A program made the position numbers and the translations under genes. A DNA stretch of 64,000 nt from NCBI RefSeq assembly GCF_006345805.1, contig NC_042999.1:71052001-71116000 (forward strand), in the 5' to 3' direction. Positions 3,160-55,680 of the stretch are shown here, one piece after another (within the stretch, counting starts at the first letter, position 1; each line of letters opens with the position of its first letter). The DNA comes from Octopus sinensis. Taxonomy: Eukaryota. The notes below the pieces were generated by a model, which saw nothing but the letters and a program-made list of their open reading frames with translations, was not told the origin of the DNA and did not search any database.

Positions 3160-3623
3160 GTATTTAATCATATCAAAGGAAAATGGAATTTAATTAAAAT
3201 TAGAATATTCAATCAAAATTTACATTTCCAGTGGTCTAATGTGTAAAAAGAATTGGTCAAGAAGACTAATTGGTCAATTAGTCATACGATGTAGTGTATA
3301 TTTATACACATAAGGAATCCACTTAACGTGGATTCAACACATTAGAAAGAACAGCTAGGTTCTGTAAACCACAAAAATAACGGATAAAATTCGACAGGAA
3401 TAAATTTGGAAATGAAAAACATTTAGCATCTAGTACCCTGGACCAATTGGTTTCTGATAATCTTTTAGCGAGTCAGGGGGAACTCACAAGGTCTGATCTT
3501 CTTCAGCAAGGTCCAACCTAGGGTTAGAACATATCCAACAAGGAATATCAAAAGGGAAATGGAATTTAATAAAAATAAAAATATTCAATCAAAATTCCAT
3601 TTCCCTTTGATATGATTAAATAC
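3160..3623 (-). mobile_element. Non-coding Penelope-pLTR/retrozyme-like element inserted in (AT)n (family H1)
   Basis: 32-bp terminal inverted repeat (3160-3191 vs 3592-3623, 1 mismatch), internal direct repeat (3171 vs 3546), (AT)n on both sides, hammerhead motif inside. Confidence 0.65.
3435..3512 (-). ncRNA. Type I hammerhead ribozyme
   Basis: Minus strand ACCUUG-CUGAAGA-[stem II with GUGAGUU/GACUCGC]-GAAA-CC AAUU GG-UC-CAGGGU; 6-bp stem I, intact core, palindromic stem III, GUC cleavage triplet. Confidence 0.75.
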
Positions 3624-3834
3624 TATATATATATATATATATACGCACACAGACATATGTATATATATATTATATATATATATATATATATATATATAAT
3701 ATATATATATATATATATATATATAATATAATATATATATATATATGTATGTATGCATATATATATGTATATATATATATATGTACATATATATGTATAT
3801 ATGTACGTATATATATGTATATATAGTACACATA

Positions 3835-4040
3835 GTTAAGATTTATAGAAAGACAAAAACGAAAAGTGGTGCATGAACTACCAGCAGGTGTATTAGTGTG
3901 ACGCTCGAGAAAAATGGAAAAGTCTTCTAGTTTTTGAGCCTACGGTCTCCGACAGAAAAGAATAAGAGGAATAAGAGGAAATAAATAAAGAGAAGGAAAA
4001 AAAAACGTGTTAAGTTCAGTGGTCCAACATGGTGTTTATA
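3835..4040 (-). mobile_element. Degenerate copy of minimal-hammerhead element family H2
   Basis: tattagtgtgacgctcg...aaagtct...gagcctacgg...gacagaaaag aligns with 7857-7985 and 54680-54828; follows an (AT)n tract. Confidence 0.6.
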
Positions 4041-4042
4041 TA

Positions 4043-51082: not shown

Positions 51083-53696
51083 AGCTAAGTGAGCAGAAGT
51101 ATGTAGAATTAAGTGCATTGCCGATATAGCACTTCTAGTAGATTTGAACTCAAGATCTTTGAACTAGTTCTTCATACCATACCAGTTTGTCATTTAACTT
51201 CTACATATAACGAAATGCTAACCATTAAATTTCGAAGTAACAATATTACCATAGCTGTCTCCTTTTCTCTTACTCTACATGATTTTATTCCAGGTGTAGA
51301 GAGGGCAGGTGTAAAAAGAATTTGGTTGACAAAAGATAAAGAATGAAGTCAATTTTTTCTGGTCGTCCATGGATATCTATGAAGAGGGGATGTGTTGCAA
51401 AAAAATGGTATTTTAAATATTGAATAAAGTATTGAACGCGTTTTTATTTGAGATGGTTGGAGATAGAAAGAAATCTAAAAAGAAAGAAGTCTATGAGGCG
51501 GTGATGATAAGAGGGTATGAGGATATATATATATATATATACATATATATATATATATACATATATATATATATATATATTATGTGAAATAGAAAGATGA
51601 ATAATCTTGTAGTAGATTAATCAAAAGTTAATCTTCAATTCACCAATAATATATATATATATATATATATATATATAAAATGAGAGGGAGAGAGAGAGAG
51701 AGAAAGATAGCGTGATAGCGGCGAAAGAGATATTAAAAATATAAACATAATGCTAGATCTGCTTAAAATAAAAGTTGAATTATATTAAACTGTCTCTTAG
51801 CTAGAGTCTACTTCTTCGTGAATGTCTGCATAGGGTGATGATAAGAGCAAATGTCACGTAAACAATTAAATTTTATATATGGAATGAAGCTGAGTGCATT
51901 ATCATTTTCAGCAGATGCACATGGAAAGAAATGTGAATAAATAAATATATAAAATGTTGAAAAGCATTAACAATATATGTATATAATTATTTTAAAACTA
52001 AATTAAAACAAATCGGTGCTGTATCCTCTGTTGATTATATAATAGAAAATCTTAGCTTGAAACGATATACAATAGTAATATATAATAATAATGTACGTGT
52101 TTTTGTGGGCGTTCATTCTGCAGTTTTCATGTTTACTCGGCAATAACAAGCAGACGTATATTCAGTAAGATACCTCCTACAAATATTTCTTTGCCTGTTG
52201 TTTAGCATATACTAGTTCAGTAGTTATGTAAACATGACATCCGTTAAAATTTCTTCTCGATTTGACAAGACTAATAGAAAATCAAATAGAAATCATTCAA
52301 TTATCACAAACCATTTCCTCATTAAATTTGGGTTTTTAACCAAACACTCTTAGATTTCTATACGAGAAAACTAATTAAACTTTAAATACAAATGTTAAGT
52401 TAATGAGTAAATTATTTTGAAATAAGTTTTCCAGAAAATCTGAGATAACAGCATTTGAATATTAAGCTATCTACGGGTTCCTTACAATTGAAGCTATACC
52501 AATTATGCAGTGCTATAAAAGTTTAACATGCATTTTCTTTTCTTTCACGATTTAGTCAGAAGATAGAGCAACACCCATGCCATTTTTTAATGTATGCAAA
52601 ACTGGCAGGATGAAAGGATAGAATACCTGCTAAAGGAAACTAAACACCAAGCAGTGGTGCACATCTAGGTGATACATTAAGTTAACTATCTAAGAAGAAA
52701 TCGATCCCTTCAATGAACTTCCCATAAAGTTTCCGTCGGCCAAAGTTCACTCATATGACTTTGGACATCTCGAGGATATGGTAGAAGATACAAGCCGAAG
52801 GTGGTGTGCAGTGGAATTGTGACCGAAAATACATTGTTACGAAGTAAGCCCAACCACGCATTCATGTCAGAAGAGAGGTACAATAGAGCGTTTGAGTGAA
52901 CGTTGCTTATGCTAGAAATAGCTATCAATTATCCTTCAAACCACACCCTACCGTCTTAATAGGAGAAAGGATGTATTGTCTAAATTGTTCTTAGGTGTGC
53001 TATGTCTAAGTAAAAGTAATGACGGTCACGACAGAAACGCCCTTGATTATATATCTGCTCTGTCGGAACTGATCAAAAGCAAAACAACAACTACTACAAG
53101 AGCAAAACAGCTATGAGAGATTTCAAAGAAAAGCCAATACATTATCTACAGTGACATTACAAGCAATATCTCTACGGTTATGAACTAGCAATATAGGATT
53201 TCAACCCACTATAAAAAAGAAGGTAAGTCACGAAGTGCATAACACATTCTTTACGTTTCCATTGTTCAAACTGTTAGAACTCCTTCAAATTATGTACATT
53301 TCAATAAAATGGTCATGAAACGGCCATAAATGGCTGTAAGATCTCAAAATAGAAATAATTCCCGATTTTCAACTTACAAAAGGTTAAACCGAAGAATTTC
53401 TGCAATAAACGAATTAAGGCAGTTGTGACATTTTATTTCACCTTATTCTAATCTTTAACCATCAAATTTCTTATGTGTCAGATCTAAAGCAAATCCAATT
53501 TCGATTAAATCTTCCGTAAATAATCGTCATTCCAAATGCAATTCATATAAAGAATAGAATAGAAGCAAGACGGTAATAACACCATTCACCTGCATAAAGT
53601 GATAAAATATCGTTGACTACAATAGAGTTAGCTACACATTTGTTTAAATATATTTCTACTTACTAACACTACACTAGAACACACACACATGAACAC

Positions 53697-53913
53697 TATC
53701 TATCTATCTATCTATCTATCTATCTATCTATCTATCTATCTATCTATCTATCTATCTATCTATCTATCTATCTATCTATCTATCTATCTATCTATCTATC
53801 TATCTATCTATCTATCTATATCTATCTATCTATCTATCTATCTATCTATCTATCTATCTATCTATCTATCTATCTATCTATCTATCTATCTATCTATCTA
53901 TCTATCTATCTAT
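53697..53913. repeat. (TATC)n microsatellite with no Tx1 insertion
   Basis: Directly visible. Confidence 0.97.
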
Positions 53914-54104
53914 ATTTATATAATATGAGTGAATATTATTCCAAACTTAATTAGATATAATATGTAATATTTCTAAATGTATAATTTAATTTTTCATTAT
54001 TGAATTGATAAAAGGTGTTTTTTGTCTAATATATATATATATATATATATATATATATATATATTATATATATATATATATATATATATATATATGTATA
54101 TATA

Positions 54105-55680
54105 GTAACTAGAAAAGTACTCGAAGAGCGCAGGCCTCCGCCGAGCAGCTCATTTCCAACCATATACACGCATGCTGAAAATTGCCCAATTTCCAAACGA
54201 ACGCCAACTGGAGCTGTGTGTGTAATTCATTTCCAGTTGTTTCCAAACTACTAGTCAGGTCAGTATGAACAGTTTTAAATATAAGCTACTTTTAAAAGAG
54301 GTATCTGTCTACTTACAAAACTAAACCTACCTTCCTAGCTACTTTGCATCCCTCTGTAGTCAGTATAGTATCAATCATTCCTCAAGGGTTCAGCATCAGT
54401 TGTTGCTACCACTGCCTCCTCCTCTGCTGCTGTTTTTAGCAACCCTTGAATATGTTAGCGTCATTTAATTTCTGAATTGTTTCGCTACCGTTTGTTTATG
54501 TAGTTTGATCTCTTTATCCATCAGTTTCTAGTAGGATAGATACGCGAGTAAAATTACTAATAGAGAAACGAAAATAAAACTTTGGAAACAGTAACGCCAC
54601 CATAGGTTACGTGAAAACCATGAACATGTTTTCAAGGGAGATAATCAGAGAAAGACTTCAAAAAACGTAACATTGTAATACTCCTTGTTTCTTTCTGTGT
54701 TCCTTTCTGTGGAAGAGCGTAGGCTCGAAACGTAAAAGACTTTTTCAATTCCCGAGCGTTATAATAATACATCTGTTTGTTGTATACACCACCTGCCTTC
54801 GTCTTTTGTTTTTTCCGTAAATTCTCCCTATATATATATATATATATATATATATATATATATATATATATATATATATCTATATATATATATATATAAT
54901 ATATATATATATATATATATATATATATATATATATATATATATATGTATATATAGTAACTAGAAAAGTACTCGAAGAGCGCAGGCCTCCGCCGAGCAGC
55001 TCATTTCCAACCATATACACGCATGCTGAAAATTGCCCAATTTCCCAAACGAACGCCAACTGGAGCTGTGTGTGTAATTCATTTCCAGTTGTTTCCAAAC
55101 TACTAGTCAGGTCAGTATGAACAGTTTTAAATATAAGCTACTTTTAAAAGAGGTATCTGTCTACTTACAAAACTAAACCTACCTTCCTAGCTACTTTGCA
55201 TCCCTCTGTAGTCAGTATAGTATCAATCATTCCTCAAGGGTTCAGCATCAGTTGTTGCTACCACTGCCTCCTCCTCTGCTGCTGTTTTTAGCAACCCTTG
55301 AATATGTTAGCGTCATTTAATTTCTGAATTGTTTCGCTACCGTTTGTTTATGTAGTTTGATCTCTTTATCCATCAGTTTCTAGTAGGATAGATACGCGAG
55401 TAAAATTACTAATAGAGAAACGAAAATAAAACTTTGGAAACAGTAACGCCACCATAGGTTACGTGAAAACCATGAACATGTTTTCAAGGGAGATAATCAG
55501 AGAAAGACTTCAAAAAACGTAACATTGTAATACTCCTTGTTTCTTTCTGTGTTCCTTTCTGTGGAAGAGCGTAGGCTCGAAACGTAAAAGACTTTTTCAA
55601 TTCCCGAGCGTTATAATAATACATCTGTTTGTTGTATACACCACCTGCCTTCGTCTTTTGTTTTTTCCGTAAATTCTCCC
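54105..55680. repeat. Near-exact tandem duplication of a ~725-bp unit separated by (AT)n
   Basis: 54105-54828 vs 54956-55680; only one 1-bp indel noticed; unit has a Helitron/HINE-like CTAG end and a family H2 element at its right end. Confidence 0.93.
54703..54738 (+). ncRNA. Minimal hammerhead-like motif (A6U); second copy at 55555-55590
   Basis: CUUU-CUGUGGA-A-GAG CGUAGG CUC-GAAA-CG-UA-AAAG; 4-bp stem I, 3-bp stem II, palindromic ACGU stem III. Confidence 0.55.

Follow-up and report, generated by a model that had tools for sequence, protein, structure and literature searches.

Four hammerhead-bearing repeat families at (TA)n tracts of an Octopus sinensis locus resemble the ends of Penelope-like elements

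Penelope-like elements (PLEs) are known to bear hammerhead ribozymes at their ends, with several unrelated motif families per genome, molluscan examples included, and solo copies as well as opposite-strand pairs 100-700 bp apart have been ascribed to truncated PLEs (PMC4209133). Palindromic inverted junctions and an optional 'tail' have been described for PLEs (PMC3846280; PMC8557442), octopus Naiads are listed with a (TA)n preference (PMC8557442), and vertebrate retrozymes have been derived from the pseudo-long terminal repeats (pLTRs) of PLEs (Li et al., bioRxiv 10.64898/2026.07.22.740005). PLE-end hammerheads, head-to-head pairs, one-sided tails, TA targets and PLE-derived retrozymes are all already published. 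A literature search that included the portions at hand of the cephalopod repeat papers PMC13282606 and PMC8967140 found no description of hammerheads in octopus or other cephalopod PLEs; for giant squid, 235 Rfam hammerheads are counted with no analysis in the relevant text (PMC6962438), and the retrozyme text of PMC7229834 and bioRxiv 10.64898/2026.07.22.740005 covers neither cephalopods nor TA targeting. Here we describe a stretch of 64,000 nucleotides (nt) of Octopus sinensis DNA (contig NC_042999.1, positions 71,052,001 to 71,116,000; 'the window'), in which four repeat families with hammerhead motifs, termed H1 to H4, lie at (TA)n tracts.

We posit, as a reasonably probable reading, that H1-H4 are the hammerhead-bearing ends (pLTR regions) of four PLE families, inserted at (TA)n by a PLE reverse transcriptase (RT)-endonuclease from outside the window. 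The features on which the argument is built are as follows, with positions counted within the window.

3126..3159, unstranded: left flank of H1, 16 unique nt and (TA)9
3160..3623, minus strand: H1 insertion, RNA-sense 3' end at 3160 on (TA)9
3435..3512, minus strand: type-I hammerhead of H1, CUGAAGA, 6-bp stem I, palindromic helix III
3624..3659, unstranded: inverted copy of the H1 left flank, (TA)10 and the same 16 nt, then more (TA)n
3835..4000, minus strand: old solo H2-related copy, ~75% to H2, with a decayed hammerhead and its 3' end in degenerate TA
7857..8201, unstranded: H2a, head-to-head pair, arms 85% alike, 3' ends outward, right end on (TA)20
8074..8109, plus strand: minimal hammerhead in the right arm of H2a, CUGUGGA, bulged A, 4-bp stem II, GAAA-CG-UH
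10154..12555, unstranded: H3, head-to-head pair, arms of ~1.25 kb, 98.8% identical, left 3' end on (TA)21
10301..10388, minus strand: hammerhead of the H3 left arm, CUGACGA, 6-bp stem I, 7-bp stem II, palindromic helix III
12438..12521, plus strand: hammerhead of the H3 right arm, with the core change U4A (CAGACGA)
40368..41176, minus strand: H4, 1.44 copies, head to tail, of a non-coding unit of 563 nt, with (TA)n at either end
40554..40616, minus strand: inner hammerhead of H4, CUGACGA, 6-bp stem I, near-palindromic helix III
41119..41177, minus strand: outer hammerhead of H4, on the strand of the inner one and one unit upstream of it, stem I reduced to 4 bp at the TA junction
54682..54828, plus strand: H2b, stub of 147 nt, minimal hammerhead at 54703-54738, 3' end on long (TA)n
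55534..55680, plus strand: duplicate of H2b, hammerhead at 55555-55590

The window is animal DNA with a GC content of ~35%, and its (TA)6+ tracts, when merged, number 39 and occupy ~3% of the length; a mariner (4036-5329), an L1/Tx1-type element (~23.9-28.7 kb) and many copies resembling short interspersed elements (SINEs) are among its other repeats. A descriptor that required a stem I of at least 4 bp, CUGNNGA, a stem II of at least 3 bp, GAAA, a short or palindromic helix III and UH identified seven loci, every one inside H1-H4, while 100 local dinucleotide shuffles gave a mean of 0.1 and a maximum of 1. With the strict core CUGANGA there were four loci (H1, the H3 left arm and both H4 motifs, vs 0.02 in the shuffles), and these display the type-I order CUGANGA / GAAA / UH with stems I and II. 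When two core mismatches were tolerated, eight loci were found (0-2 in five shuffles), the H3 right arm and one simple-repeat match being the only additions; a stricter first descriptor (helix III of at least 1 bp, loop II of at most 40 nt) returned zero loci in the window. A preliminary description of this DNA had each family fold a type-I hammerhead. This holds for the seven loci in H1-H4 but not for the 3835 copy and the 7857 left arm, in which stem II or the core is broken, and the core is altered in the H3 right arm by U4A and in all H2 copies by a U at position 6. Minimum free energy z-scores were unremarkable for H1 (0.07), H2 (-0.46) and H4 (0.20), and that of H3 was -2.3.

According to our analysis, nine of 11 delimited element ends adjoin a (TA)6+ tract, for which the chance is 0.0017 per end; the remaining two are set in TA that is short or degenerate, with a pure tract 160 and 54 nt away. 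None of the 18 control ends, taken from nine matches of a SINE-like family within the window, came within 30 nt of a (TA)n tract. In the five independent insertions recovered by the unbiased scan, a TA tract follows 95-282 nt downstream of the predicted cleavage site (P ~2e-5). The location of the four families in or beside (AT)n tracts, as put forward in the preliminary description, is borne out within the window, and so is the enrichment of their junctions for (AT)n over background that it had named as a check. The hammerhead is oriented toward the TA-abutting end in every family, and this end is named the 3' end for that reason. Because the copies at 54680 and 55530 represent one duplicated unit, the independent insertions amount to six.

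Since TA flanks the inverted ends of H1, H2a and H3 and the window contains mariner elements, TA-inserting DNA-transposon derivatives (miniature inverted-repeat transposable elements, MITEs) or fold-back rearrangements with incidental hammerheads were considered as well. We regard this explanation as largely excluded: inverted ends are missing from H2b, the 3835 copy and H4, the two arms of H3 stop at different points, and four unrelated families share the motif in one and the same orientation relative to the TA junction.

The PLE-type anatomy that had been proposed is upheld. H1, H2a and H3 are inverted with their 3' ends outward, H2a and H3 as head-to-head pairs, and H1 and H4 are partial tandems; the solo 3835 copy departs from the earlier statement that all copies are inverted or tandem. 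Different families do not align with each other above a block-shuffle background in any pair, save H2 with the 3835 copy, and they can be considered distinct, as had been reported. The longest stop-to-stop frames measure 85 amino acids in H3 and 47 in H4, and none of the nine H3/H4 frames included in the Pfam scan was matched, in agreement with the earlier view that no credible open reading frame (ORF) is present.

In H3, both arms are cut at the same 5' point at an A/T palindrome within an A/T-rich fold-back centre (~11397-11423), and the right arm falls ~110 nt short of the 3' end of the left one, although it too ends on TA, in this case (TA)18. The H3 left arm was present in 20 of 24 listed runs from four organisms. 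When it was compared with the contigs of one run per organism, it was matched by 937, 394, 668 and 248 contigs, all 30 bins being covered in the four runs, and H3 is thus a multi-copy family in four organisms. In three of the four runs the same 30-letter continuation leads past 11396 without a fold-back. Because contigs run on beyond this point, the H3 family seems to be longer than the window copy, with the palindrome made at the locus. The summed contig depth peaks at the hammerhead and in each of the four runs falls ~130-250x toward the inner end, a profile that 5' truncation would produce, but this depth cannot rank the parts and is not counted as evidence. A TA junction was absent among the H3 contig loose ends listed, with 206 further ends beyond these, and the H3 motif pattern gave no match in metagenome contigs. 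Two changes, G10310A and C10313T, occurred at matching depth in 4/4 runs (65634/63609, 5301/5301, 19863/19898 and 2841/2841); they turn helix III from ACGAUCGU into ACAAUUGU, by which a G-C pair becomes an A-U pair and the palindrome, which a dimeric hammerhead would need, is kept. Among the best 40 of 60 H3 variant rows, none touched the core or stems I and II; four lay in the hammerhead, two of them in helix III and two in loop II. Two further observations on this family are an internal direct repeat of ~170 nt (72%) with a 43-nt tandem at 10460-10880 of the arm, and a 53-nt step back from 11201 to 11148 in other H3 copies in three of the four runs.

The H2 copies start at different 5' points. 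The two arms of H2a share their 5' truncation point, around the palindrome AGATCT (8019-8024), and the H2b pair lies inside a TA-bounded tandem duplication at 54105-55806 (54105-54828 vs 54956-55680, one indel in 725 nt), the unit of ~851 bp consisting of 575 nt of an unrelated repeat, the H2 stub and (TA)n. Two same-strand hammerheads are in this way set ~852 nt apart, a pair that probably arose by local duplication; the duplication itself is either a retrozyme-like dimer born by microsatellite slippage or an assembly duplicate. The H2 architecture fits the metazoan PLE minimal hammerhead ribozyme (min-HHR) consensus CUGANGAH-GNN..NNC-GAAAN-palindrome-NUH except for position 6, where all five H2-type copies carry U in place of the invariant A6. 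Changes of A6 give low activity, and a natural A6C variant cleaves slowly (PMC3088659); self-cleavage of H2 is predicted to be weak on account of the A6 change. The H2 motif pattern had no matches in viral contigs and none in metagenome contigs.

With H3 continuing past 11396 in three of four runs and the 5' ends of H2 differing from copy to copy, H2 and H3 are likely the 5'-truncated ends of longer elements. These same observations count against the proposal that all four families are self-contained non-autonomous retrozymes, which would undergo cleavage and circularisation and be mobilised into (AT)n in trans. That at least 1.25 kb of H3 is free of an ORF speaks for this proposal, as does the derivation of non-LTR retrozymes from PLEs (bioRxiv 10.64898/2026.07.22.740005). 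The published octopus Naiads, however, have A/T-rich non-coding 3' ends of ~1 kb that finish in TA, as judged by eye (PMC8557442), and 1.25 kb without an ORF is for this reason no proof of non-autonomy; in a truncated autonomous element, an end of 0.15-1.25 kb would be expected to have none. Furthermore, H2 carries U6, and the hammerheads of H2a and H3 lie on opposite strands, because of which neither can release a monomer. We consider it rather unlikely that the proposal applies to all four families, even though H4 agrees with it in its structured monomer and in its two hammerheads, which lie on one strand at a distance of one unit.

H4 is bounded by terminal repeats of 250 nt, 98.8% identical, around a 314-nt spacer without an ORF remnant, and type-I hammerheads on the same strand enclose its 563-nt non-coding unit, which is not the case in H1, H2a or H3. 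Stem II of the inner hammerhead consists of a 3-bp base flanked by A.A and a 7-bp distal hairpin. The monomer has a GC content of 37%, and its circular fold is better than that of shuffled sequences (z -3.3, 40 shuffles). At the 3' junction TATAAT is shared with the unit's own continuation, while the 5' end falls inside stem I of the hammerhead. Because H4 crosses two cleavage sites, its template would have been an uncleaved tandem or a circle. Judged from the window copy, H4 is likely a complete short non-autonomous unit, that is, a retrozyme-type passenger. The preliminary description had regarded all families as non-autonomous units moved in trans, and of this only H4 is built like a retrozyme, H1 being less clearly a complete short unit; H3, which runs past its fold-back, and H2, with its differing 5' points, do not conform.

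Three observations concern the surroundings of H4. Right at its 5' junction, 41228-41312 holds three short (TA)n-TAATAATTAAGGTGGC units, possibly the result of slippage or of template jumps during insertion. The adjacent stretch 41296-41876 has neither a recognisable PLE frame nor similarity to H4. On the other side, an old inverted pair (74%) at 39889-40222, which we take to be MITE- or Helitron-like, has arms that end in a short hairpin of the GGCTG-CGAAA-CAGCC type and contains no hammerhead.

H1 resembles H4 in its stem II (a 3-bp base flanked by A.A and a 7-bp distal hairpin), and its helix III palindrome could form a 10-bp self-dimer (-14.4 kcal/mol). A diverged direct repeat/hairpin of 60 nt is found at 3545-3604 (88.5% identity between 3170-3229 and 3545-3604), after which an inverted copy of the terminal ~33 nt ends at 3623. 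This inverted arm runs on through (TA)10, 16 unique nt and more TA, all of it in reverse complement to the left flank. The letters reveal the switch point: the arm at first follows the local hairpin and from there on the left junction (three T, not four). The template of the mirror arm therefore reached across the junction and was either the newly joined target or an RNA with donor flank attached. The suggestion that insertion expands (AT)n has its single case here, in a flank copy that includes a (TA)n tract. H1, too, has the appearance of a complete short unit, though less clearly so than H4.

An alternative for H1-H4 as a whole is that they are by-products of autonomous PLEs, either truncated ends or single internally deleted copies, so that no self-propagating short family exists. 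5' truncation is usual in PLEs (PMC8557442; bioRxiv 10.64898/2026.07.22.740005), and spacers captured between pLTRs are known (PMC3846280). The direct repeat of H1, moreover, suggests an internal repeat and not a fresh tandem, because it is 12% diverged while the inverted end is near-identical. H4 argues against this alternative, as 98.8% identical terminal repeats and a 314-nt spacer lacking an ORF remnant are what would be seen in a fresh copy of a short unit. We hold the by-product explanation to be unlikely overall, while granting it some weight.

Several results weigh against reading H1-H4 as PLE ends. Some other repeats in the window adjoin (TA)n too, for example at 36498 and 39689. No ORF for a PLE RT or GIY-YIG endonuclease was found among the 24 window ORFs scanned with Pfam, and because no PLE ORF is linked to any family, PLE ancestry rests on anatomy. 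An Rfam search of the window placed no hammerhead among its 129 matches at E<=1, which otherwise comprised microsatellite-driven microRNA models and a weak U6. The continuation past H3 amounts to 30 letters from one contig per run, too short to reveal an ORF, and H4 and H1, each represented by its copy in the window, are putative families of short units. As for the covariation of stems that had been named as a check, there is one linked compensatory change, in H3 helix III, and none among the H2 copies in the window. The H3 change is suggestive only as evidence of covariation across genomic copies, because it represents one inherited event and both letters are CpG transitions.

Helix III can self-pair in all four families (10 bp in H1, 8 bp in H3, 5+5 bp in H4 and 4-6 bp in H2), an indication of weak activity as dimers. 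In vitro, cleavage by metazoan PLE hammerheads is poor (PMC4209133), eight of nine Xenopus dimers were uncleaved (bioRxiv 10.64898/2026.07.22.740005), and for Poseidon_Ac of the green anole, a PLE that has been reconstituted in vitro, the ribozyme is protein-assisted and cleavage is dispensable for insertion (PMC11167929). Self-cleavage of H1-H4 is for these reasons only a prediction.

If H1-H4 are PLE ends, as we favour, then on established PLE biology (PMC11167929; PMC3846280) the endonuclease would nick TA-rich DNA, and reverse transcription would begin inside the RNA, downstream of the hammerhead, with alternative starts giving rise to one-sided tails. Synthesis would mostly stop early, and the cDNA might fold back or anneal at a palindrome and so build the mirror arm; candidate seeds are AGATCT in H2a, the A/T palindrome in H3 and the terminal hairpin in H1. 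H4 would have been copied more than once round from tandem or circular RNA. The hammerheads would act, if at all, as weak dimeric or protein-assisted ribozymes by way of their palindromic helix III, and insertion would be independent of cleavage. A donor of PLE proteins would be at hand in octopus, as the O. vulgaris annotation contains 31 recently active PLE families.

A bolder version, to which we give little credence, would make H4 and H1 dispersed non-autonomous retrozyme families that ride the TA-targeting PLE machinery as RNA circles of 563 and 375 nt. Fold-back second-strand synthesis would copy the target (TA)n as at H1, so that each insertion adds microsatellite and new targets, while in H2 an abundant, naturally occurring A6U hammerhead would be maintained for some function apart from rapid cleavage. 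If true, (TA)n-copying insertion would be a feedback that helps to explain the TA-rich landscape, and should the duplication of (TA)n be routine at insertion, retroelements would supply microsatellites as well as occupy them. The parts most worth attention are the H1 flank copy, which bears on how the PLE mirror arm is made, the H3 palindrome change in helix III, which bears on selection of PLE hammerheads for dimer cleavage, and the A6U core of H2.

The window contains further repeats of note. The mariner at 4036-5329, directly beside the old H2 copy, has 44-bp inverted ends and a frameshifted transposase (PF01359), with a closest database relative that is 89% identical; it is followed at 5330-5560 by an imperfect, MITE-like inverted repeat of ~200 nt. 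A local tandem duplication (88%) at 9753-9881 and 9985-10112, bounded by (TA)n(TG)n, contains no hammerhead, and TA-bounded duplications therefore arise without ribozymes here. The repeat-like stretch at 13448-13840 runs into degenerate TA on one side and carries the word CUGAAGA at 13588 on the minus strand, and it may be an old PLE end; together with 39889-40222 it was tried as a fifth or sixth hammerhead family, and both were rejected for having no complete motif even at two core mismatches. The L1/Tx1-type non-long terminal repeat element at 23890-29790 encodes a zinc-knuckle ORF1 and, interrupted by a frameshift, an AP endonuclease, RT and zf-RVT; a second 3' fragment follows a (TATC)n tract at 29006-29098. 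(TATC)n/(TCTA)n arrays likewise terminate the related 3' ends at 22135-22584 and 29718-30277, which suggests that this type of element may target a tetranucleotide microsatellite. A partial match to U6 small nuclear RNA (35831-35933; 30.9 bits, below gathering) directly follows a SINE-like copy ending at 35826.

With the pLTR hammerheads of endonuclease-bearing PLEs in PMC4209133, which comprise min-HHR forms and variants with a small palindromic helix III, H1-H4 share the type-I motif, the bulged nucleotide before stem II and a palindromic helix III of the dimer type. They differ in that the H2 core CUGUGGA had no occurrences in the supplement searched, and in that stem II of H1 and H4 has a 3-bp base flanked by A.A and a long structured loop, with no ORF linked here. 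Partial tandems, inverted 5'-truncated copies, junction palindromes, a putative one-sided tail and the (TA)n bias are shared with Neptune, Naiad, Penelope and Hydra PLEs (PMC8557442; PMC3846280), and the symmetric fold-back of H3 with its extension, like the centre of H2a, matches the palindromic junctions and tail published for them. The H3 extension of ~110 nt is a single case and longer than published PLE tails, which measure 30-40 nt in the accounts in those two papers. An inverted flank copy as in H1 was not found among the insertions described in the consulted parts of either. Unlike H1, H3 and H4, which have complete motifs, Naiads are presented without canonical hammerheads (PMC8557442), and the short H1-H4 motifs had no meaningful match in the published Naiad, Chlamys or Hydra consensus sequences of that paper's supplement, in which line breaks can hide matches.

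H4 resembles animal non-LTR retrozymes (PMC7229834; bioRxiv 10.64898/2026.07.22.740005) in being non-coding, with 37% GC, a structured monomer and type-I hammerheads that recur on the same strand at a distance of one unit. It differs from them in holding 1.44 units, whereas they have two or more full ones, two complete tandem units being the criterion of Li et al. (2026), and in its length of 563 nt, compared with the usual 150-450 nt (within the 51-972 of Li et al.); H2a and H3 differ in being inverted and not tandem. Poseidon_Ac (PMC11167929) offers a further parallel, with an A/T-rich target, an internal RT start downstream of the hammerhead and alternative starts that give a tail, although its hammerhead overlaps the ORF start, whereas in H1-H4 no ORF start is recognisable. 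We infer that the octopus elements work like PLE ends, and H4 like a non-LTR retrozyme, PLE membership not being proven. They extend the known pattern to a genome with at least four unrelated hammerhead families within 64 kb.

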